In this document: positions 7,603-18,658 of the stretch, piece after piece | Layout: every line of letters starts with the position of its first letter | Position numbering within the stretch: position 1 is the stretch's first letter | Source: Candidatus Limnocylindria bacterium | GTDB taxonomy: Bacteria > Eisenbacteria > RBG-16-71-46 | DNA length: 64,000 nucleotides | Reading direction: 5' to 3' | NCBI GenBank assembly: GCA_035632955.1 | Contig: DASQFU010000048.1 | Coordinates: 3,164 to 67,163 of the forward strand | Notes under the pieces: generated by a model | What the model was told of the DNA's origin: nothing | The model's database searches: none | The model's input: only the letters and a program-made list of their open reading frames with translations | Program-made: the position numbers and the translations under genes

Positions 7603-8151
7603 CTACCGCGACCAGCCGAGGGAGTAGACGACGGGATAGTGGGCTTGCTGGCCGTTGGCCCGGGAGTGAAGCGGCCACCGGATCGAAAGCTCCAGCACGC
7701 CGAGCCTCCGGATCGCACGTCCCAGGACGAGAAGTCCAAGCATGTCCGTGCGCCCGAGGTTTCCTTCTTCCTCGATCCGCCCTTCCCACTTCTCGGCTTC
7801 CTCGCGCTGATAATCGATGCCGGCTCGACCGCTCCATTGCCCCCCGATTCCACGGCCATAGGTGGTCGACAGGTGGTAGCGGTGGCCGCCGCGCAGGCCG
7901 TGGCGATTCTCGACGAGGCTCAGGCGCACCCGTGCCGTCGCGCCCGCCACGCCGCCGGCGACGTCACGAGCGATCCCCGCTCCGAGCACGGGATCCCATG
8001 TACCGCTCCCGAACTGCACGTGTTGGTGGCGCAGCCCGCGCCGCCCGAGCTCGAACGGATTCACCTCGGTGTCGCCCAAGGGAATCGAAACGCCGGCGCG
8101 CGCGCCGAACGTCCAGGCGCCGGCCGAGCGTGCGGCCTGGAGCGAAAGCAA
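7603..8151 (-). CDS. hypothetical protein (possible truncated outer-membrane protein)
   Basis: TTG-start ORF with G/R-rich beta-like composition and no clear signal peptide. Weak call. Confidence 0.3.
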   Translation of the reverse strand: MLSLQAARSAGAWTFGARAGVSIPLGDTEVNPFELGRRGLRHQHVQFGSGTWDPVLGAGIARDVAGGVAGATARVRLSLVENRHGLRGGHRYHLSTTYGRGIGGQWSGRAGIDYQREEAEKWEGRIEEEGNLGRTDMLGLLVLGRAIRRLGVLELSIRWPLHSRANGQQAHYPVVYSLGWSR

Positions 8152-8497
8152 TGGATCGCCGAAACCGCTCAGCGTTTCGTTACGGTGATGGATGTCTGGA
8201 GCGACCGGCTGGTTCGGATTCGTTCAGCCCGCTCAGCCGGGCTCGGCCAGCGCGGGCCGCACCATTGCGAACCACAGCGCTTCGAGGGCCAGCAGCAGCG
8301 CCACGCGAGCCCAAATGCCTCGCCGCGATGAGAGCCATGGCGGCGGTCCGATCGACAAATTTCCCCGTACGTATGGGTCCGTTCTCATGCCAAGCAACAA
8401 TGGACGCGGGTCGTCGGCTGCGCAACTTTGGGTTGGACCGGTAGTCCCCGACATCGATACTGTCCCGGATTCCGCGTCCGACCACCGGAGAACCCGA

Positions 8498-10237
8498 ATG
8501 CGTATCGCCGCCATCGACATCGGCACCAACTCGATCCACATGGTGATCGCCCAGGCGACCACGATGGGCGCGTTCGACGTCGTGGATCGCGAGCGCGAGG
8601 TGGTGCAGATCGGCCGCGGATCGTTCACCGGCGGCCGGTTGCGCGCCGAAGCGATCCGCCGCACGGTGGAGGCGCTCGCGCGTTACGTCCAGCTCGCCCG
8701 GCGCCATCAGGTGGACAAGATCCTGTGCACGGCCACGGCGGCGGTGCGCGAGGCGAGGAACGGCGGCGAGTTCCTGACGGCCGCCTACGAGGCCTCCGGG
8801 ATCGCGCCGCGCGTCATTCCGGTCGAGGAGGAGGGGCGTCTCATCTATCTCGCCGTCAAGGCGGCGCTCGGTCTCGAGGAGGCGCCGTCGCTGATCGTCG
8901 ACATCGGCGGTGGCAGCATGCAGCTCGTGGTCGGCACCCGCGAAAAACTCCTGCTCGCCTCGGGAGCACCGCTCGGGGCGCTGCGGCTGACCGAAACACT
9001 GCTCGAGAACGACCCTCCCGGGCGCCGCGAGCTGCAGGTCCTGCAGCGCACGATCCAGAAGCAGTCGCGAGAGCTGCTCCAGCGCGTGAAGGAACACGAG
9101 CCCGTGCGCGTGTATGGATCGTCGGGGTCGATTCACGCGCTCGCGCACATCGCGCACTGGGCGAAGAACGCCCAACCGATCGCGAACATCAACGGTCACC
9201 TGCTGTCGGTGGATGCGCTCAAGGACGTGACCCGGAAATTGAGCCGCATGACGGTGGCGGAGCGCGAGCGGCTGCCGGGGATCGATGCGCAGCGCGCGGG
9301 GATCATCCTTCCCGGAGCGCTGGTGCTCTCGCATGTGCTCGAGGAGATGGAAGCCGAAGGGATCACGATCTCCGACTTCGGAGTGCGCGAGGGGCTGGTC
9401 ACCGACTACATCAACGTCCACGCCGAGGAGATCTCGGAGTTCGAGGACGTGGAAGACCTGCGGGTGCGGAGCGTGCTGGCCCTGCTGAAGAAGTTCGACG
9501 GCGACGGCCAGCATCCGCGCCACGTGGCGAAGCTGGCGCTCGCGCTCTTCGATCAGCTGCGGACCGTTCACGAGCTACCGCCGGCCGCGCGCGACGTGCT
9601 GCATTTCGCGGCGCTGCTCCATGACGTCGGCGCGGTGATCGGCTACGACGGCCACGCCGAGCACTCGTACTACGTCATCAAGCACGGCAATCTGCGCGGG
9701 CTGAGCCCGGAGGATCTGGAGCTGGTCGCGAACGTGGCGCGCTATCACAGCAAGGCGCGGCCGCGAAAGCGTCACGCGGATTTTCGGGGTCTCGACAAGA
9801 CGCAACAGCGCACGGCGCGGTGGTTGGCCGCGTTGCTGCGGATCGCCGAAGGGTTGGACCGCAGCCACTACCAGTTGATTCGTGGTTTGCGCGTCGTACG
9901 CCGCGATCATCGCGTCTCGATCCTGGTCACCGCGCGCCGAGGCCGCGAGGCGCAACTCGAAATCTGGGCTTCGCGCCGCCGCACGGATCTGCTGAGCCGG
10001 GTGCTCGGTGGCAAGGGCGGCAAGACGCGCGTGCGCGTCGCGCTCGACACCGCGGCCGGACAGTCCGCCACCGGGAGAGCCGCGACGGCGCTGCCGCCGT
10101 CCGCCGGCGCCAAGCCCGGGCCGGCGACAAGGACGGCCGCGGTCGCAGGTAAGTCGGAACCCGGGAACGCGAAGCCGGCGGCGAAGGAGTCGGCCGCAAA
10201 ACCGGCGGCCCGGCTCAAGGTCGTTCCGAAGCGCTGA
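8498..10237 (+). CDS. ppx: exopolyphosphatase / guanosine pentaphosphate phosphohydrolase (Ppx/GppA family) with Lys/Ala-rich C-terminal tail
   Basis: ATG at 8498 with GGAG RBS. N-terminal 'IAAIDIGTNSIHMVIA' actin-like ATPase motif of Ppx/GppA. HD-like C-domain. The last ~75 aa are low-complexity AK/P-rich. Confidence 0.9.
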   Translation: MRIAAIDIGTNSIHMVIAQATTMGAFDVVDREREVVQIGRGSFTGGRLRAEAIRRTVEALARYVQLARRHQVDKILCTATAAVREARNGGEFLTAAYEASGIAPRVIPVEEEGRLIYLAVKAALGLEEAPSLIVDIGGGSMQLVVGTREKLLLASGAPLGALRLTETLLENDPPGRRELQVLQRTIQKQSRELLQRVKEHEPVRVYGSSGSIHALAHIAHWAKNAQPIANINGHLLSVDALKDVTRKLSRMTVAERERLPGIDAQRAGIILPGALVLSHVLEEMEAEGITISDFGVREGLVTDYINVHAEEISEFEDVEDLRVRSVLALLKKFDGDGQHPRHVAKLALALFDQLRTVHELPPAARDVLHFAALLHDVGAVIGYDGHAEHSYYVIKHGNLRGLSPEDLELVANVARYHSKARPRKRHADFRGLDKTQQRTARWLAALLRIAEGLDRSHYQLIRGLRVVRRDHRVSILVTARRGREAQLEIWASRRRTDLLSRVLGGKGGKTRVRVALDTAAGQSATGRAATALPPSAGAKPGPATRTAAVAGKSEPGNAKPAAKESAAKPAARLKVVPKR

Positions 10238-10251
10238 CCTGGTTCTGGGCG

Positions 10252-11229
10252 CTACCCGGTCTCCGGTGCGCTCTCGGGCGCCGGCGCCGGATCGTCGCGG
10301 ACTTCGGGTTCCGCCACGGCCGGCCGCCAGGACGAGAACATCTCGTTGCCTGCGGCTTCGCGCACCTGAACGACGGCTCGAGAATGATCGCGGTCGATGC
10401 GTTCGATCACGGGCGTGAGCGCGGCGCCGTGGCGCTCGAGTCCCACGTTCCGCAGTTTCACGGCCCGGCGCTCCAGCAGCTCCCGGAGCATCGCGAGGTC
10501 ATGAACGGCGCCGAGCGCCCGCTGGAGCTCTCGCAGCGGTTTTAGGGGCGCGATCGCGCCGAACACCGGCTGCGCAGATTCGATCACGTAGCGCCACTTC
10601 TTGACCGCGACGCGGGCCGCGTGAAGTCGGACGTCGTCGCTGCCTTCGATTGCGGGGCGGATCGCCTGAAGCGCCGCGTCGCGCGCTGTGGCGATGCGCC
10701 GGCGCGCCAGCTCGCGCGGCTCCGGGAACGCCTGCAGCCGCCCCTGCGCGATTCGGGCGGCGCGCATCACGCGGCGTTCCAGTCCGCTCAGGACTTTCGG
10801 GCGCGCGTTCCGCACCGCGCGCTGGCGCCCGCGCCGCAACCGGCGACGCAGGCGGATCCACAGTGACTCCACGACCATGCGGGACGAGGTCGCGAGCCCG
10901 TGCGCGAGCGTGACGAGTTGGGCCTGGTTGACCTCGAGCTCCCGGATCGGGCCGAGGGCGCGGCGCAGCGTGCGGAGAGAACGGCGCGCGCGGCGCGTGG
11001 CGCGCGGGCGCAGCAGGTCACGCCAGATCTGCAGCGCGGCGTCGAGGCGGCGCAGCGCGACACGGAGATCGTGGACCGCCTCGTCGTCGTCGTCGGTACG
11101 CACGCGCGCGGCCGCGGCGCTCACGGCATGCAGCCGCGTCGCGAGGTCGTGCTCGATCCGGGCGACCTGCTCGACCAAGCGGGTGGGGCCGGCATCCGCG
11201 CCCGGGCCTGGCGAAGGCATCGCAGCCAC
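10252..11229 (-). CDS. CHAD domain-containing protein
   Basis: All-helical, Arg-rich protein with recurring 'VHDLRVALRRL / AVHDLAML' conserved-His motifs characteristic of CHAD. Last gene of the minus-strand operon. Confidence 0.8.
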   Translation of the reverse strand: MAAMPSPGPGADAGPTRLVEQVARIEHDLATRLHAVSAAAARVRTDDDDEAVHDLRVALRRLDAALQIWRDLLRPRATRRARRSLRTLRRALGPIRELEVNQAQLVTLAHGLATSSRMVVESLWIRLRRRLRRGRQRAVRNARPKVLSGLERRVMRAARIAQGRLQAFPEPRELARRRIATARDAALQAIRPAIEGSDDVRLHAARVAVKKWRYVIESAQPVFGAIAPLKPLRELQRALGAVHDLAMLRELLERRAVKLRNVGLERHGAALTPVIERIDRDHSRAVVQVREAAGNEMFSSWRPAVAEPEVRDDPAPAPESAPETG

Positions 11230-11231
11230 CG

Positions 11232-11948
11232 TTAGATCTCCGTCAGTCGGCCTTCGGATGATCGGTCGCTGGTCTCGAGCAGCGAGGAGACGCGGGTCGC
11301 GAGAAAGTTGGCGACGTCATCCACCGGCTGGGTCGCGTCCAACGTCTCGAAAGTGTACTCGCGGGCCAGGTGATCCAGTTCGGTGATCACGCGACCCTGA
11401 TACTCGATGAACGACTCGTAGAGGTCCGCGCCCATCGGCAGATCCATTCCCGACTCCCAATAGTCGAACCCGCCGTTATGGAGCACGCGTGGCACCAGGT
11501 CCGCGACCTCGATGCGCAGGTAATAGACGGCGTCGGGCTTGAGCGCGACCGAGTACACCTGCTTGATCCAGTCGGGCTCCGCGCCGCGCACGATCGCCCG
11601 CGCGATCAAGGAATAGATGTAGCGGTCGGTGAGCATCACGAATCCGGCGCGGAGCGCGGGGATGATCTGTCGCTCGAGCCGGTCGGCGAAATCCGTCGCG
11701 TAGAACAGATTGAACGCGTTCGACCCGAGCGTGTTCCCTTGTTTGGCGCGGCGGATGCCGCGGCTCGCGAGATCGGAGCGCGACAGTCCGGTCTCGGCGA
11801 CCGCGTAACCCAAACGCTCGAGATGCGAGCGCAGCCGGGTGACGTGAGTCGTCCGGCCGACGCCGTCGGTGCCCTCGATCACGATCAGCCAGCCCGACAG
11901 CTCCTCGGGATTGACGCCCGGCACTCCGTAGGCTTCAAACCTGGGCAT
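11232..11948 (-). CDS. thymidylate-kinase-like P-loop protein with degenerate Walker A (GVGRTT, Lys->Arg)
   Basis: 'LIVIEGTDGVGRTT' aligns to the Tmk P-loop EGxDGxGK[ST]T, with Arg replacing the catalytic Lys. 'DRYIYS' aligns to the Tmk DRY motif. Overlaps neighbours by 14 nt and 1 nt. Confidence 0.7.
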   Translation of the reverse strand: MPRFEAYGVPGVNPEELSGWLIVIEGTDGVGRTTHVTRLRSHLERLGYAVAETGLSRSDLASRGIRRAKQGNTLGSNAFNLFYATDFADRLERQIIPALRAGFVMLTDRYIYSLIARAIVRGAEPDWIKQVYSVALKPDAVYYLRIEVADLVPRVLHNGGFDYWESGMDLPMGADLYESFIEYQGRVITELDHLAREYTFETLDATQPVDDVANFLATRVSSLLETSDRSSEGRLTEI

Positions 11949-12642
11949 AGTCGTCCTTGTTCTTGTGAATCCCGGCCAGATGCGCCTTGATGGCGCGCCG
12001 CAGCGCGCGCTGCTGGGTCTCGACCGCCTTCGTGGCGTCCATCACGGTGAGCCCGTATTCCTGAACCAGCGTTTCGTACTCGGCGAGGATGCGGGACTGG
12101 AACAGCTTGTAGGACTCCTGCGGATCGGCATGCAGATCCAGGTCCATCCCCGCCTCGTAGAACTTGAGCTTCGGCCGCCCGGAGAGGATGCGCTTGAGCG
12201 CCACGTCGAGCGGCACCCGAAAGTAGAACGCCTGGGTCGGCACGACGGCGAACCGGTACAACGACCGCACCCAGCGCGGCGGAACGCCGCGCACCACGTC
12301 GCGCGCGAACGCCGTGTACACGTAGCGATCCGCGAGCACGATCGCTCCCGCCTTGAGCGCCGGCATGATCTCGCGCTCGACCCGGTCGGAGAAGTCGGTG
12401 GCGTGGATCAGCGAGAAGGTGAGCGGTGTCAGCAGCTTTTTTCGCTTGCCCCGCGACGTCGTGGCTTTGACGATCGGCGACGAGTTCCACTCGCTGAACA
12501 GCACCGGATACCCTTCGCTGCGCAGCCACTGGGCGAGCAGCGTGAGCTGCGTGCTCTTGCCCGAGCCATCGATCCCCTCGACCACGAACAGCCGCCCGGG
12601 ATGGGACTGAGGCAGGCTGCCATAGGTTCCGGGCTCGCTCAT
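11935..12642 (-). CDS. thymidylate-kinase-like P-loop kinase (canonical Walker A)
   Basis: ORF trimmed to the ATG at 12642 (ATGA overlap with the sixA stop). 'FVVEGIDGSGKSTQ' is a canonical Tmk P-loop. 'ADRYVYTAFARD' is the DRY motif. Confidence 0.75.
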   Translation of the reverse strand: MSEPGTYGSLPQSHPGRLFVVEGIDGSGKSTQLTLLAQWLRSEGYPVLFSEWNSSPIVKATTSRGKRKKLLTPLTFSLIHATDFSDRVEREIMPALKAGAIVLADRYVYTAFARDVVRGVPPRWVRSLYRFAVVPTQAFYFRVPLDVALKRILSGRPKLKFYEAGMDLDLHADPQESYKLFQSRILAEYETLVQEYGLTVMDATKAVETQQRALRRAIKAHLAGIHKNKDDYAQV

Positions 12643-13157
12643 ACCCTGCTTTGCTTGCGGGCGATCCCGCGCAGCACACGCGGCGGCAGGAAGGCGCGCA
12701 GCTCGCCGCCGCCGGCCTTGATCGGACCGTCGAAGGCCACGAGGCACGCGCCGGCCTTCTTGAGCGGCACCGACGACGCGCCGGCGCCGAACAGCAACCC
12801 ACCCGCCAGCTTGCCGAGATCCGGCTCGTGACCGACGAGGAACACGGCATCGTCGGGCTCGAACTGCGACAGGCGCTGGAGTGTCGCGCGCACCGAGCCG
12901 CCCGGCACCAGCGCGTCCAGCGTTTCGATCGTGGTTTCCAGCTCGAGCGCTTCACGCAGAAGTTTCGCCGTCTGCATGCAGCGCACGAGCGGGCTCGAGA
13001 GGACCGATGTCGGATCCGCTTCGAGCCGCGCGAGCCCGCGTGCGGCGCGCTCGGTGCGCTCGGCGCCACGCGGCGAGAGCGGGCGCAGGGAATCATCCGG
13101 CCACCGTGACGAATCACGGCTGCCGGCGGGTCCGTGCCGGAACAGATAGATGCGCAT
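12639..13157 (-). CDS. sixA: phosphohistidine phosphatase SixA (histidine phosphatase superfamily)
   Basis: ATG at 13157 with AGGA RBS. 'MRIYLFRHGPA' contains the RHG catalytic motif. ~172 aa. Confidence 0.8.
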   Translation of the reverse strand: MRIYLFRHGPAGSRDSSRWPDDSLRPLSPRGAERTERAARGLARLEADPTSVLSSPLVRCMQTAKLLREALELETTIETLDALVPGGSVRATLQRLSQFEPDDAVFLVGHEPDLGKLAGGLLFGAGASSVPLKKAGACLVAFDGPIKAGGGELRAFLPPRVLRGIARKQSRV

Positions 13158-13423
13158 GGTCGTAATCCTTGGCGCCTGTGATGCCTGCGTACGTCGCGGG
13201 GTTTCGGTGCTTGGCGTACCGAATCGCCCGCGTCCTCGCGCCTTGCGGCGGGAACAGCGAACGCAGCCTAGCATCGCCCATCGAGGGCCAGCAACGGAGC
13301 CGGGCCGCGCTCCGTAATGATCTGCACCGCATGGCCCTACACGGCCGCTGGGTTGCCGTCGTGGTCGGCGGTCGGCCTCGGTTAGACTGCGACGCGCTTT
13401 CCAATCGATCGTTAGGAGGATCC

Positions 13424-14110
13424 ATGACGCCAATCGCCCGCCGCAGGATTCCCATCGCCGCCGCGCCGGTTTTCCGCTGCGTGAAGCTCGTGCTCGCGGT
13501 CTCGCTCGCCGCCGTGCTCGGCGCCGGCAGCTCCGCGAGCCAGACGTCGCAGCCGACGCGCGCGTCCAGCGAGTCAGGGCCCCGCTCGGAGCGCAGACCT
13601 CAGCCGCGACCGCACGGCTCCAAAGTGACCGTGGCGCCGGAGCAGGTGGAGGTGGACGACGGCGACACGGCCGTCATCCGCTGGAGCGCGAGCGACGCCG
13701 AGACGGTGCGCTTCCTCGGCATCGACACTCCGGAGACGCGGCACGTCCCGCACGATCTCCCCTACGCGCAGCCGTTCGGACCCGAGGCGCGTGCGTTTGG
13801 GCAAGGCGCCTTCGCCGCCGCCACCCGCATCGAGCTCTTGCGCAGCTCGAGTCTCGATCCGTACCGCCGCACACTCGCGTACTTCTTTCTGAACGGGAAG
13901 AACTACAGCGTGCTCGTGGTCGAGGCGCGACTCGCCGAGGAGAGCATCTCGCGTTACGGCGACAACGGACTGAAGCAGGAAGCGGCGGACGTGCTGGCGG
14001 CTGCGAAGCGGACCGGGCCGTTGCCGTTCGAGTCACCGTCCGACTACCGCAAGCGCATGCGCGACGTCTCGCGCTGGATGAAGGACCGGGGGATGAGTCC
14101 CGAGCAGTGA
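13424..14110 (+). CDS. thermonuclease (SNase-like) family protein, secreted
   Basis: ATG with AGGAGGA RBS. Signal peptide. 'DGDT...RFLGIDTPE' are SNase catalytic motifs. Confidence 0.75.
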   Translation: MTPIARRRIPIAAAPVFRCVKLVLAVSLAAVLGAGSSASQTSQPTRASSESGPRSERRPQPRPHGSKVTVAPEQVEVDDGDTAVIRWSASDAETVRFLGIDTPETRHVPHDLPYAQPFGPEARAFGQGAFAAATRIELLRSSSLDPYRRTLAYFFLNGKNYSVLVVEARLAEESISRYGDNGLKQEAADVLAAAKRTGPLPFESPSDYRKRMRDVSRWMKDRGMSPEQ

Positions 14111-14150: not shown

Positions 14151-15971
14151 CTAGGGCGCCAGCACGTCCTCGGGCGGACGGCGGAGCGCGCGGGCGATCG
14201 GAATCAGGCTGTACTCGGGATCGGCCCAGCGCGAGCGGTCGTAGAAGAACGCGAGCCGCAGATCGGGACTCTTCGCGAGCGCGGGATCGGATCGCAGCCG
14301 CGCCTCGAACTCTCGCGCCAGGGCGGGGTCGTCGCGCAGCATCTGCCGCGCGATCGGCTCCATCACGTAGGGCTCGGCGTATTCCTTCTTCTGCAGCACG
14401 GTGTCGAAGGCGTTCCAATGGAACAAACCGTCCGGCGCCTGGGACTCGAACAAGTGCACCGCGACCAGCGCCGAGCGCTGATCGAGCGGCACCCAAAGGT
14501 CGCCGGGGCGGAACGTCCGCTGCCGCCGCACCAACTCGACCTGGATCACGCTGTCGGGAACATGCCCCTCGAACAGCGGCCGCGTCTTCCACGACACGAT
14601 CCGCTCCTGCTCGACGGTGTCGCTCCAGGCGCGCGTAAAACGTCGCGTGCGCACGCTGTGGATCGCGAGCCGCTCGGTCGCCGCCGTCCACTCCTGCGGC
14701 ACAAAGTATCCCACCGGCTGGCGCACCGTGATCTCGGGCTCGAGCTCCCGGAACAGCGGAATCAGAGTGTCCCACGGTGCAGTGCCGTAGCGCGGAACCG
14801 TCGTGCCGAGCACAGCGCTGAACTCGTAGCGCGTCGCCACGCCCCGGTACGGGAACGGCTCGCTGCGGCTCGTCAGGCGCGACGTCAGATCCACGGTCCG
14901 GAGCGCCTGGTCTGCGTTCCGGCCGCGCGCGACGACGTCGCTCTCGGCCTCGGACACCGCCGATCTCAATGCCGCCGGCCGGGCGTTGATCTCTTCCAGT
15001 AGCGCGACCAGGAGGTCGTAGGTGGCGCGCACGCGGCTCGCGTACGGCTTCAGCACGTGCGTCTCGACCAGCACGCTCGCCCGGCATTGCAGCGACGTGT
15101 AGCCGCTCGAAAACCGCGGGGACGTGCCCTCGAACTTGATCCCGGAGCGCGGATCGTTGGTGGTCACGAAGTCGAGATAGGGCGCCGGCAGATGCCCGAT
15201 CGCCGCCAACCGCGACACGACGCGTCCTTCGAACGCATCGACCAGCCAGCGCGTCACGGGATCGGGCGAGGTCGGCCCGTGGTTGAAGCTGTAGGTCACG
15301 TCGTGGCGATAGTCGGCGCCGTTGGTGGTGTGGTTGTCGACCAGCAGATGTGGCCACCAGCGCGTGTAGACGCGCGACAGCATGGCGCGCATCTCCGGAG
15401 CCTCGGCCTTGACGTAGTCGCGATTGAGATTGAGCCCGATCGGCGTCGCCCGCCACCCCATCTCTTCGGGCCCGTTCTGGTTGATGCGGTTGTAGCGGCT
15501 GCGGCGCTCGTGCGCGTCGACCGAGAAGATCGGCAGCACCAGCAGCACGACCTCGTCGAGCAGCGCTTCGCGCGTGCGCGTCACCACCATGTCGCGCATC
15601 AGCGCGAGCGACGCATCCTTGCCCTCGATCTCGCCGGAATGAATCCCGTTCTGGATCAGGACGATCGGCTTGCCGAGCGCCAGCGCCTGCTCGGGCGTGA
15701 ACGCGCGGTCCTTGGACAGGATGACGAGCGGCAGATCGCGTCCCTGGCCACTCCGGCCGTAGCTCTCGACCTTGACCCATGTCGAGGCGGCCTCGAGCGC
15801 GCGGCAGAAACGCATGGTTTCGTCGTAGTCCGCGGTCTGCCGGTAGGCCGAACGCTCCGCGCGCGTCTTCCAGTAGGCGGGAACCGCGAGCGTGTCGGGT
15901 GCGGGTTGGGCGGCGGCGGGCGCCGCGAGGAGAGTCAGCGCCGCGAGTCGGCGGAGCGTGCGCGAGAGCAT
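14151..15971 (-). CDS. M14 family zinc carboxypeptidase, secreted
   Basis: Signal peptide. 'GIHSGE' HxxE zinc-binding motif. Size and domain order consistent with peptidase M14. Confidence 0.8.
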   Translation of the reverse strand: MLSRTLRRLAALTLLAAPAAAQPAPDTLAVPAYWKTRAERSAYRQTADYDETMRFCRALEAASTWVKVESYGRSGQGRDLPLVILSKDRAFTPEQALALGKPIVLIQNGIHSGEIEGKDASLALMRDMVVTRTREALLDEVVLLVLPIFSVDAHERRSRYNRINQNGPEEMGWRATPIGLNLNRDYVKAEAPEMRAMLSRVYTRWWPHLLVDNHTTNGADYRHDVTYSFNHGPTSPDPVTRWLVDAFEGRVVSRLAAIGHLPAPYLDFVTTNDPRSGIKFEGTSPRFSSGYTSLQCRASVLVETHVLKPYASRVRATYDLLVALLEEINARPAALRSAVSEAESDVVARGRNADQALRTVDLTSRLTSRSEPFPYRGVATRYEFSAVLGTTVPRYGTAPWDTLIPLFRELEPEITVRQPVGYFVPQEWTAATERLAIHSVRTRRFTRAWSDTVEQERIVSWKTRPLFEGHVPDSVIQVELVRRQRTFRPGDLWVPLDQRSALVAVHLFESQAPDGLFHWNAFDTVLQKKEYAEPYVMEPIARQMLRDDPALAREFEARLRSDPALAKSPDLRLAFFYDRSRWADPEYSLIPIARALRRPPEDVLAP

Positions 15972-16029: not shown

Positions 16030-18603
16030 TCAACGAATCACGCTCACGCGCGCGGTCAGCGAGCGCTCGCCCTGAACGAGCCGCACGACGTACACCCCCG
16101 GCTGGAGCGGGCTGCCGTCGTTCAGATTGACGAGATGCGAGCCGGCGCCGAGCGTGCCGACGGCGCGCTCGCGCACCCGGCGCCCGGCGATGTCCAGCAG
16201 CTCGAGCGTGGCGGGCTCGGGGCCGGCGAGCGAGAACCCGATCCACAGATCACGATCGGTCGGGTTCGGTCGCGCGCCCTGGAGCGCGAAGCGCGCCGTG
16301 CTCGGGACCTCGATCCACGCCTCTCCGCTCAGCACCTCGCCTTGACCGTCGTCGATGCCGAGACGATAGCCGTAGCGGGAGCCCGGCGCGACGTCACGAT
16401 CCGCGTACTCGACGAGTCCCGCACCGTTGGGGGCGGGCGAGGCGATGACGTTCCAATCGCTGGACTCCGTGCGCCGGTACACCGCCGTCGTGACCGGCCG
16501 ATCCGCCGCCACGTGCCAGACGAGCTGCACGCGGTCGCTCTCGGCGCTCACGTGCGCGAGCGACACCTGGATCGCGGTGAACGCCAGGTCGACGCGCCCC
16601 ATGAACACGTCCACGTCGCTGTTGCGGCCGTCGGACCACGCCACGTAAACCGCGTCGTTGTTCGCGAACAAGCAGATGTAGTCGCCCTGATTCGGGGCGA
16701 TGTTGCTGACGATGTTGGTCCAGTCGGTGCGCACGTCGGTCACCGGCGAGCCCGGCAGCCAGGAGACGCCGCCGTCTTCCGAGCGGGTCAGGAACGTGTG
16801 CGAACCGGAGCCGCAAATGGAGGCCGGCGCGTCGCGCCAGTCGTACCACGCGAGGTAGGGCTTGCCGGCGCTCGACACGCCGACATCGGGCAACCAGTCG
16901 TCGCGGTTGGCCGGGCTGTCGCTGGCGCGTACCGGCGTCGTCCACGACGTGCCGGTGGTGGACGTGGTCGTGAACACGTCGCGATGGTCGCGCGACCGCT
17001 CCGTGACCGCGCCGTTGAACCCGGTATCGATGGTGTAGGCGCCGGTGCCGGCGGGGCCGCCGCTCGAAGGGGTCAAGGATGCGACGCGGAGGAAATAGTC
17101 GCCTGTGGTCGGCAGCGTGAACACGACCAGGGCCTGGCCGTTCGCTTCCGAATCCGAGAACGCGAGCCGGCTGTTCTGGTCGGTGCAGAAGATGCGGAAC
17201 GAGCAGATGAGGTCGGCGTCGCTCTCGCTCAGGGCGCAGATGATCGTCTGCCCCGCCGCGCCACTGAACCGGTAGTAGTCGAAGTCGTTGATGTTGCCGA
17301 TCTGGCCGCTGATGTTCTGGCTGGCCGTGAACAGATCCGCAGTACCCGGCAGGTCGTTGCTCTCCGACTCGAGGACGGTCGTCGAGGTGCCGAGGTTGTC
17401 GTTGTAGAAGTTGATCGATTCGTTCCAGGTCAGATAGACTCGGCCCCGGAACGGACCGCTGCTGCGGTCCACGGCGAGGCTCGGGAACGTGATCCCCATG
17501 CCGCGGTTGAAACCCGGGGCGCCGGTGCCGAAGTTGGCGAAGTACGAAGCCGCCGTCACCTGCGAGCCGAACGTGGCCCCCGCGGTCGTCGACTTCCGGA
17601 CGCGGAAGAAGTCGACGTCAATCGGTCCGATCGCCGCCCAGACGACATAGAGCTCGCCGTCGGGTCCCATCGCCGGGCGCGATGCCTGGACCAGCCCGGC
17701 GTCTCCCGCCGACGAGATCGTGGTCGCCGTGCTCCAGGCCGCAACGTTGGTCGGGTCGGTCTGGATCTGGAAGTCGATCTGGTTCGCGCTCGGCGTAAAG
17801 TTCGTGTACGACACGTAGAGATTACCGCTCGCCGAGTCGGCGACCACCCAGACCTTGTCGAGGAAGTTGGAGCTGTTGTTCACCGAACGGACCAGCTTCG
17901 GCGTCCCCCAGGTGAGCACGCCGCCGACGAACGTGCCGCGCACGACACCGACGCCGTTGGTGGAGCCCGACGGGTTGCAGAGCGCGGCAAAGTAGAAGGT
18001 GCCGGTTTTCTCGTTCACGGTCAGGACCGGATCGCTGGTCCACTCACCGATGCCACCCGTGACCGGCGGCGCGCCGCCGTCGATCCACGTCTGCCCGCCG
18101 TCGTTGGAGTAGGCATAGCCCTGGGTGCTGAGTCCGGTGTGGAAGCCCTGGCCGTCGTTCCAGGCCGCGATCGCCTGAACGCCCAACGCGGCGATCGACA
18201 CTTCCGCCTGCCCGGCGTCGGGATTGTCGCCGGCGCGGTTGTTGAGCTGGCGGTTCGGCGCCAGATTCGCCTGTAGGCGCTCCGGAGCCGGAGCGTCGAA
18301 GCGGTGGTCGCGCGCAAGCTGCGCGGCGCCCTGGCGCCCGCCCGGCTCGCGCATGTCGGCCGGCACGCGGCGGCGCGCTCCGGAACCGGCTGCCGGCGGC
18401 TTCGTTTTCGCGAGCTTTCGGGCCCGAGCGAGCCGATGCCGCGCCCCTTCCATCAGCTTCGCTCGCTGCGTCTGTTTGAACTGGCGCGCGCGCTGCTCGA
18501 CGCTCATCTCGCCGGCCGCGGCGCGCAGCGGCGTCTCGATCAGCGCCGCCGCGAGCACGGCGATGGCGAGCGACGTCCAGCGCGCTCGGAATCGGAGAGT
18601 CAT
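16030..18603 (-). CDS. BNR/Asp-box repeat protein (sialidase-like beta-propeller) with PPC domain and FlgD-Ig-like C-terminal domain
   Basis: ATG at 18603 with AGGAAG RBS. Signal peptide. Multiple S-x-D-G-G-x-[TS]-W Asp-box repeats. A 'SNDLPGTADL...DFDYYRF' pre-peptidase C-terminal-like segment. C-terminal ~85 aa resemble FlgD/T9SS-type sorting domains. Confidence 0.75.
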   Translation of the reverse strand: MTLRFRARWTSLAIAVLAAALIETPLRAAAGEMSVEQRARQFKQTQRAKLMEGARHRLARARKLAKTKPPAAGSGARRRVPADMREPGGRQGAAQLARDHRFDAPAPERLQANLAPNRQLNNRAGDNPDAGQAEVSIAALGVQAIAAWNDGQGFHTGLSTQGYAYSNDGGQTWIDGGAPPVTGGIGEWTSDPVLTVNEKTGTFYFAALCNPSGSTNGVGVVRGTFVGGVLTWGTPKLVRSVNNSSNFLDKVWVVADSASGNLYVSYTNFTPSANQIDFQIQTDPTNVAAWSTATTISSAGDAGLVQASRPAMGPDGELYVVWAAIGPIDVDFFRVRKSTTAGATFGSQVTAASYFANFGTGAPGFNRGMGITFPSLAVDRSSGPFRGRVYLTWNESINFYNDNLGTSTTVLESESNDLPGTADLFTASQNISGQIGNINDFDYYRFSGAAGQTIICALSESDADLICSFRIFCTDQNSRLAFSDSEANGQALVVFTLPTTGDYFLRVASLTPSSGGPAGTGAYTIDTGFNGAVTERSRDHRDVFTTTSTTGTSWTTPVRASDSPANRDDWLPDVGVSSAGKPYLAWYDWRDAPASICGSGSHTFLTRSEDGGVSWLPGSPVTDVRTDWTNIVSNIAPNQGDYICLFANNDAVYVAWSDGRNSDVDVFMGRVDLAFTAIQVSLAHVSAESDRVQLVWHVAADRPVTTAVYRRTESSDWNVIASPAPNGAGLVEYADRDVAPGSRYGYRLGIDDGQGEVLSGEAWIEVPSTARFALQGARPNPTDRDLWIGFSLAGPEPATLELLDIAGRRVRERAVGTLGAGSHLVNLNDGSPLQPGVYVVRLVQGERSLTARVSVIR

Positions 18604-18658
18604 CGGGTCTTCCTTTCGAAGCAGGGCGAGGGAGCGACGCGAATCGCACCCGTTCATA

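Follow-up and report, generated by a model that had tools for sequence, protein, structure and literature searches.

A Probable PPK3 Polyphosphate Kinase Operon with a Noncanonical Partner Subunit in a Poorly Studied Bacterial Lineage

Why would two divergent proteins with the thymidylate kinase (Tmk) fold be encoded in a single operon with a SixA-type histidine phosphatase and a CHAD protein, facing a gene of the PPX/GppA family? This question is raised by a five-gene locus on contig DASQFU010000048.1 of assembly GCA_035632955.1, labeled Candidatus Limnocylindria bacterium, from which a stretch of 64,000 nucleotides (referred to here as the window) was analyzed. An earlier reading of the letters (the original prediction) had proposed a polyphosphate (polyP) module with the Tmk-fold pair as its unusual core, and this proposal was borne out by a match to the PPK3 system. 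In our assessment, the window very probably carries a bacterial PPK3 operon, with Tmk-like-1 as the catalytic subunit (cPPK3) and Tmk-like-2 as a noncanonical partner of the rPPK3 type. The gene structure, the domain content, the orthology of cPPK3, the loss of residues that bind deoxythymidine monophosphate (dTMP), the motif pattern of the two subunits, and the conservation of the neighborhood were all computed in this work.

The original prediction did not recognize this pairing as a described pathway, but one has been published, in archaea: PPK3 was reported in a 2024 preprint and then by Höfmann et al. (J Biol Chem 2026; PMC12995831). PPK3 is a heteromeric polyphosphate kinase derived from two exapted dTMP kinase (dTMPK) paralogs, and in Sulfolobus acidocaldarius it is encoded with sixA, ppx, and CHAD genes in the operon saci_2017 (sixA), saci_2018 (ppx), saci_2019 (cPPK3), saci_2020 (rPPK3), and saci_2021 (CHAD) (PMC12995831). 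Saci_2019 is the catalytic subunit, while Saci_2020 alone has neither PPK nor dTMPK activity; it boosts cPPK3 activity approximately tenfold through oligomerization, the complex (SaPPK3) runs as α2β2, and the two subunits work best at a 1:1 ratio (PMC12995831). Neither Saci_2019 nor Saci_2020 formed dTDP, whereas a third paralog, Saci_0893, did (PMC12995831). The SaPPK3 reaction is reversible, with a specific activity for polyP + ADP → ATP that is ∼50-fold higher than that for polyP synthesis (PMC12995831). Another cPPK3 homolog (PMC12995831), STK_15430 of Sulfurisphaera tokodaii, was first reported as an unusual thymidylate kinase (preprint Discussion). The PPK3 clade was described as comprising bacterial and archaeal dTMPK paralogs with PPX, SixA, CHAD, NUDIX, and Pst neighbors, bacterial operons with PPX, SixA, and CHAD neighbors were predicted, and essentially all PPK3 operons were found to encode both c and r (PMC12995831). 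In that description, cPPK3 retains the P-loop, the DRX arginine, and the lid, the dTMP-binding residues are not conserved, and genomes with PPK3 also have a canonical dTMPK and are usually devoid of PPK1 and PPK2 (PMC12995831). For the present analysis, the proteins of the S. acidocaldarius locus (L081) were aligned with those of the window. It should be noted that "PPK3" in the biocatalysis literature denotes a Ruegeria pomeroyi enzyme of the PPK2 family, which is a different family.

Judged by its sequence, Tmk-like-1 is a clear cPPK3 ortholog. In a phmmer search of all solved structures, it matched STK_15430 (PDB entries 2plr/5h70) with 193 bits (E = 5e-56), canonical dTMPKs reaching no more than 64 bits, and it is 47% identical to Saci_2019. 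Its motifs are intact (P-loop GSGKST with K29, D105-R106-Y107, and R151), and both family signatures are present (E51-W-N-S-S55 and I79-H-A-T-D-F84). A neighbor-joining (NJ) tree grouped window cPPK3, Saci_2019, and STK_15430 in a c clade with a bootstrap value of 99/100 and set PPK3 (c and r together) apart from the Tmk proteins of Escherichia coli and Thermus thermophilus in 100/100 replicates. In NCBI the protein bears the name "thymidylate kinase [Candidatus Limnocylindria bacterium]"; that it belongs to an enzyme that makes and spends polyP is more likely, and the assignment given here corrects a routine misannotation.

Although both Tmk-like proteins, which are 37% identical to each other, match PF02223 (5e-20 for Tmk-like-1 and 4e-18 for Tmk-like-2), their scores against the dTMP kinase model TIGR00041 (79.1 and 70.8, respectively) fall below its cutoff of 83.25. 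The TREPGG motif, Phe74, and Arg78 of E. coli Tmk, which we take from the 4TMK structure to be dTMP-binding, are replaced: TREPGG corresponds to SEWNSS in window c and ETGLSRS in window r, Phe74 to His (H80) in c and Tyr in r, and Arg78 to Phe (F84 in c). In both window proteins the lid is also extended by an insertion of 11 residues (YEAGMDL...) that is absent from E. coli Tmk. Neither protein matched the PPK2 family (PF03976) at E ≤ 0.01.

To place the locus in a wider context, relatives were collected by a pattern scan over one genome per GTDB species, of which at least 575 were confirmed by tblastn; this figure is not a count of PPK3 systems because canonical dTMPKs often contain one of the two patterns as well. 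The best 80 loci (57 to 79% identity to window cPPK3) were analyzed. They come from Candidatus Eisenbacteria, several orders of Acidobacteriota, Chloroflexota, Nitrospirota, Planctomycetota, Thermodesulfobacteriota, Binatia, Armatimonadota, Omnitrophota, Verrucomicrobiota, and Nitrososphaerales. The five window proteins were mapped onto these loci, with neighbors sought within about 6 kb, and the neighborhood check called for by the original prediction came out in favor of a conserved gene order. An r-type gene was present in 78/80 loci and lay directly downstream of c on the same strand in 74/80. PPX was found nearby in 50/80, SixA in 31/80, CHAD in 20/80, and all three together in 10/80; these counts are minimum values, given the many short contigs and the divergence of CHAD. 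With start sites picked heuristically, the c stop and r start were estimated to overlap in 54 of 73 loci and to lie within 20 nt of each other in 12 more. Two Candidatus Eisenbacteria metagenome-assembled genomes (MAGs), L001 and L002, have the exact five-gene layout of the window, convergent ppx included. Finally, an exhaustive phmmer search of 1.84 billion representatives at 50% identity returned 359 clusters at E ≤ 1e-30. The abstract of the PPK3 paper speaks of "a few bacteria," while its main text describes the clade as mainly bacterial (PMC12995831). From the sequences gathered here, the bacterial family looks broader than "a few."

Several observations made among these relatives deserve separate mention. 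In four Planctomycetota loci (L040, L055, L058, and L066), the c-to-r adjacency is broken: the r-type gene sits ∼2.7 kb upstream, and the order from there is CHAD (in two loci), PPX, and cPPK3. Two loci of a Thermoproteota archaeon GS_HAYS MAG (L060 and L074) show sixA-ppx-cPPK3, with no partner found downstream when the window partner and Saci_2020 were used as queries; these may be exceptions to the rule of c plus r or may reflect incomplete contigs. In addition, the source MAG is labeled Candidatus Limnocylindria bacterium (Chloroflexota) by NCBI, whereas its closest species-representative loci are the Candidatus Eisenbacteria MAGs L001 and L002, with 78 to 79% identity to window cPPK3 and identical synteny. 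This may reflect a binning or taxonomy inconsistency.

Across the relatives, the two subunits are set apart by their basic residues. Lys or Arg occupies positions 59, 63, 64, 67, 68, 156, 160, and 179 in most of 82 c sequences, and the same eight positions in 77 r sequences hold Gly, Glu, a gap, Asp/Asn, or Val. In the window partner, K67/K68 is replaced by Gln/Gly, R156 by a gap, and K160 by Asp. Judged by a sequence alignment, the residues confined to c appear to match the docked polyP-binding cleft ascribed to cPPK3 (PMC12995831).

Tmk-like-2 is predicted to be the partner paralog (rPPK3 type), with a Walker-A Lys-to-Arg replacement. Its score against 2plr (STK_15430) is 126 bits (2e-35), compared to 46 bits for the best canonical thymidylate kinase. 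It is 32% identical to Saci_2020 (88.6 bits), whereas window cPPK3 is 25% identical to that protein (72 bits). Residues common to Tmk-like-2 and Saci_2020 include TTH, Tyr in place of His80, Gly in place of Glu51, and Asp in place of Lys160, and these shared derived residues make orthology of the two proteins plausible. The P-loop of Tmk-like-2 reads GVGRTT, and its Walker-A Arg (R32; codon 11853-11855) occurs in 77/77 r orthologs, those of Nitrososphaerales included. Saci_2020 (L081:5621-6253) carries a different lesion: it reads D-G-Y, with the DRX Arg changed to Gly, keeps the Walker-A Lys, and has an altered GIMSSGK loop. A third variant is found in P0241 (460 aa; Alicyclobacillaceae/Alicyclobacillus sp. 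SP_1), which joins c and r in a single chain and whose r half has a Walker-A Lys-to-His change. As such, partner subunits consistently appear to carry an active-site defect, but a lineage-specific one (Lys to Arg, DRX Arg to Gly, or Lys to His). The r sequences other than Saci_2020 grouped in 69/100 replicates of the NJ tree.

The companion genes complete the picture of a polyP locus, and all five domain assignments of the original prediction were upheld in Pfam and NCBIfam, the profiles that it had proposed for checking (PF05235, PF02223 twice, PF00300, and PF02541) all being matched. The sixA product scores 78.4 bits against TIGR00249 (cutoff 74.5) and 9e-11 against PF00300, with both the RHG motif (FRHGPA) and the GHEP histidine present. 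SixA is a recurrent neighbor of PPK1, PPK2, and PPK3 genes (PMC12995831). The CHAD product matches PF05235 (1.3e-31) over residues 29 to 253, corresponding to profile positions 3 to 228 of 228; attachment of CHAD proteins to polyP granules has been reported (PMC10892726). The ppx product matches PF02541 (2.3e-62), PF21447 (6.2e-26), and HD (1e-9), and Saci_2018 PPX, used as a tblastn query, matched the window at 8498-9406 (E = 1e-24). Members of the PPX family remove terminal phosphates from polyP. By family membership, the window protein is a predicted exopolyphosphatase of the PPX/GppA family. Its C-terminal ∼70 aa (∼10025-10237), following domain III, form a basic tail of low complexity (…AGKSEPGNAKPAAKESAAKPAARLKVVPKR) in which Ala, Lys, and Pro are abundant and which no Pfam match covers.

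The genes sixA, Tmk-like-1, Tmk-like-2, and CHAD form a tight minus-strand operon running from 13157 to 10252 and convergent with ppx/gppA at 8498-10237, and all five lie where the original prediction had put them. Read directly from the sequence, the sixA stop and the Tmk-like-1 start share an ATGA at 12642-12639, and the Tmk-like-1 stop and the Tmk-like-2 start overlap by 14 nt at 11935-11948; both junctions had been predicted exactly. Two other distances required correction. The Tmk-like-2 stop (TAA, 11234-11232) and the CHAD start (GTG, 11229-11227) are separated by 2 nt (11231 and 11230) rather than 1, and the convergent gap between the end of the ppx stop (10237) and the CHAD stop (10252) is 14 nt rather than 15. 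An in-frame ATG is located three codons past the GTG of CHAD. Shine-Dalgarno-like AAGGA, GGAG, or AGGG sequences lie upstream of every minus-strand start, that of sixA being an AAGGA 8 nt upstream of its ATG. The overlapping c and r frames would fit coproduction of the subunits, for which a 1:1 ratio is best in the archaeal enzyme. A scan of positions 8000 to 13700 gave no match to the sigma-70 promoter consensus. It showed no terminator in the 14 nt at which ppx and CHAD converge, and internal "terminators" in this range were no more common than in shuffled sequence. When the region upstream of sixA was aligned with those of L001 and L002, no motif beyond the start codon was conserved. The window gave no matches in Rfam and tRNA scans, and a regex and tblastn search of the 64 kb, which is a weak test, found no further Tmk paralogs, no PPK2 Walker A motif, and no PPK1 C-terminal motif.

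Certain points weigh against the assignment of the window to PPK3. Its function is carried over from a single archaeal enzyme, with which window c shares 47% and window r 32% identity. The absence of the DRX arginine was given as the hallmark of rPPK3s (PMC12995831), but Tmk-like-2 keeps DRY (D108-R109-Y110), and the Arg is kept in 76/77 r orthologs; the published statement fails for most of the r sequences sampled here. In the NJ tree, Saci_2020 falls with the bacterial/Nitrososphaerales r clade in no more than 14/100 replicates, a weak placement that is probably due to its long branch. Lastly, a single transcript for the operon is a prediction drawn from the gene overlaps.

Other explanations of the locus differ in how much of the PPK3 assignment they would displace. 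A variant of it, rather than a replacement, holds that the partner is not inert but binds nucleotide or polyP and serves as an allosteric energy-charge sensor or as a second catalytic activity in a PPK3-like complex. The partner has an invariant Walker-A Arg, an intact DRY, and a conserved lid. ATP binding is usually retained in Walker-A Lys-to-Arg mutants (RecA K72R is one) despite poor turnover, which counts for this idea, as does the different lesion of Saci_2020 (DRX Arg to Gly, with Lys kept). The active-site positions of the 77 r orthologs, from many phyla, are more conserved than expected for a purely structural subunit (D25/G28/T31, D105-R106-Y107, R114, R118, R151, and E163-G165-D167 are nearly invariant), and therefore ligand binding is suggested rather than a scaffold role only. 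However, Saci_2020 alone was inactive as a PPK and as a dTMPK and enhanced cPPK3 via oligomerization, and r has lost the basic cleft residues that c conserves. On balance, we regard a ligand-binding partner as rather unlikely. It is far less probable that both proteins are genuine (deoxy)nucleoside monophosphate [(d)NMP] kinases, driven by ATP or polyP, for nucleotide supply. Both do match Pfam Thymidylate_kin, and the first report of STK_15430 as an unusual thymidylate kinase (preprint Discussion) speaks for this view; against it stand the scores below the TIGR00041 cutoff, the replaced dTMP-binding residues, the formation of dTDP by Saci_0893 but not by Saci_2019 or Saci_2020, and the 100/100 split of PPK3 from Tmk. 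The original prediction had suggested polyP-linked (d)NMP phosphorylation. Its polyP-linked part comes close to the polyP + ADP → ATP activity measured for the characterized homolog, but the dNMP/NMP substrates are not supported, as Saci_2019 has no dTMP kinase activity and the dTMP residues are replaced.

A phospho-signaling unit, also raised by the original prediction, would have SixA acting on a histidine-phosphorylated partner and the P-loop proteins serving as signaling NTPases. The SixA family membership required for such a role is real, but genes for a histidine kinase, HPt, or response regulator are absent from the cluster and from its immediate neighbors, nothing in the neighborhood points to two-component signaling, and SixA is a recurrent neighbor of all three PPK types (PMC12995831); this possibility appears slighter still. 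The clustering of unrelated genes by chance has in its favor nothing but its a priori possibility and can be considered next to negligible, given that the c-to-r pair recurs in 74/80 loci from at least 10 phyla and two domains, with PPX, SixA, and CHAD recurring nearby.

Under the PPK3 reading, catalytic activity and its direction, the oligomeric state, and the noncatalytic role of the partner would be as in the archaeal enzyme. By homology to SaPPK3, the c and r subunits of the window would form a hetero-oligomer (α2β2 in S. acidocaldarius) that reversibly moves a terminal phosphate, ATP + polyP(n) ⇌ ADP + polyP(n+1). PolyP would be built only at a high ATP/ADP ratio, and ATP would be regenerated from polyP when the energy charge drops. 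The CHAD protein would attach to polyP, either as polymer or as granule, and the convergent PPX would hydrolyze polyP to inorganic phosphate. The SixA-type histidine phosphatase would have some part in the same polyP network.

The features of the locus and its immediate surroundings are collected below. The genes flanking the cluster encode an SNase-like nuclease, an M14 peptidase, an outer membrane protein (OMP) beta-barrel, and a DUF3142 protein. None of these is tied to polyP or phosphate metabolism, and the module was bounded at 8498-13157 because the flanking genes are unrelated to polyP.

Features of the predicted PPK3 locus and adjoining genes (positions in the window)
Feature	Positions	Strand	Remarks
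ppx/gppA	8498-10237	plus	579 aa; N-terminus MRIAAIDIG
CHAD	11229-10252	minus	325 aa; GTG start; last gene of the operon
Tmk-like-2 (predicted rPPK3-type partner)	11948-11232	minus	238 aa
Tmk-like-1 (predicted cPPK3)	12642-11935	minus	235 aa
sixA	13157-12639	minus	172 aa; first gene of the operon
Intergenic region	13158-13423		between sixA and the divergent SNase-like gene; presumed promoter
SNase-like nuclease gene	13424-14110	plus	divergent from and adjoining the operon; product apparently secreted; not polyP-related
M14 zinc carboxypeptidase homolog gene	14151-15971	minus	not polyP-related
Gene for an 875-aa protein	16030-18657	minus	weak PPC (pre-peptidase C-terminal) match; not polyP-related

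Among the hits of the large phmmer search, PPK3-related domains were also encountered within larger proteins. P0253 and P0254 (696 and 650 aa) are single-chain fusions with an added Ppx-GppA domain III/HD module. In addition, cPPK3-like domains with 45 to 52% identity to the window protein occur inside the large proteins P0281, P0316, P0331, P0269, and P0373. P0281, from EukProt (the protist Ancoracysta twista), combines SPX, Tmk-like, and DUF2252/APH domains; P0316 and P0331 combine an MFS transporter with Tmk-like and APH/DUF2252 domains; and P0269 and P0373 combine inorganic pyrophosphatase (InPase) with a Tmk-like domain, P0269 also having an ART-PolyVal domain. In these five proteins the P-loop is kept and the lid insertion is partly kept, while the EWNSS signature is not. 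This set gives a hint that PPK3-related domains may be present in eukaryotic phosphate-homeostasis proteins.

The PPK3 system has already been described, and the window provides a new bacterial member of the family. Setting aside the supplementary alignments and taxon tables of PMC12995831, we make a modest addition to that work: an apparently invariant partner lesion that differs from the published one, a seemingly broad bacterial distribution, and putative domain fusions. The points concerning distribution and the partner lesion leave the basic picture of PMC12995831 unchanged. Nevertheless, the bacterium belongs to a poorly studied lineage, and PPK3 pairs in many environmental phyla bear on the prediction of polyP and phosphorus cycling from metagenomes, where PPK1 and PPK2 are usually the sole search targets. 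The active-site change in the partner of most lineages differs from that of the archaeal model, and R32 and R109 are concrete targets for mutagenesis. A more speculative possibility, which we think unlikely, combines two ideas: that the bacterial/Nitrososphaerales partner is a ligand-binding regulator, for instance one sensing ATP/ADP or polyP and setting the direction of the reaction, and that PPK3 is one of the major polyphosphate kinases in phyla that abound in soil and water, among them Acidobacteriota, Nitrospirota, Chloroflexota, Planctomycetota, and Eisenbacteria. If the sensor idea were true, the explanation of rPPK3 inactivity by DRX loss would be limited to the Sulfolobales. Linked to the second idea are the related domains joined with PPX, pyrophosphatase, MFS, or SPX modules, a protist being one of the sources.

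Among known systems, the closest counterpart of the window is the SaPPK3 operon. The same five protein families are present in both; c lies directly before r with overlapping frames, CHAD directly follows r, and Saci_2017 (sixA) and Saci_2021 (CHAD) occupy the same positions as their window counterparts. At the protein level, window cPPK3 is 47% identical to the archaeal subunit and has all catalytic motifs together with EWNSS and IHATDF, and in both systems the partner lacks the basic residues conserved in c. The two differ in the placement of ppx, which is convergent and on the opposite strand in the window but located between sixA and cPPK3 in the archaeon. They differ also in the partner, since that of the window keeps the DRX arginine and has a Walker-A Arg, whereas Saci_2020 keeps the Lys and reads DGY. 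Further, the window host is a high-GC bacterial MAG rather than a thermoacidophilic archaeon, and the archaeal version has been assayed biochemically, whereas the bacterial version is known here from genes alone.

STK_15430 of Sulfurisphaera tokodaii (2plr, 4nzy, 4rzx, and 5h70; "probable thymidylate kinase") is the top structure match of both window proteins, end to end, but covers the catalytic subunit by itself; the heteromer has yet to be solved. The canonical Tmk proteins (E. coli, T. thermophilus, and Aquifex aeolicus; TIGR00041) share with the window pair the fold, the P-loop, DR(Y/H), and the lid arginine. They differ from it in that the window pair has replaced dTMP residues, an 11-residue lid insertion, and sub-cutoff scores, and in that the published homologs of PPK3 are without dTMPK activity. 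Finally, an analogy has been drawn to two-domain class II PPK2 (e.g., Pseudomonas aeruginosa PA3455), in which an active P-loop unit is likewise paired with an inactive, oligomerizing paralogous unit (PMC12995831). The equilibrium in class II PPK2 also favors polyP-driven nucleotide phosphorylation; however, that enzyme belongs to another P-loop kinase family, is a single fused chain, and phosphorylates AMP rather than ADP.

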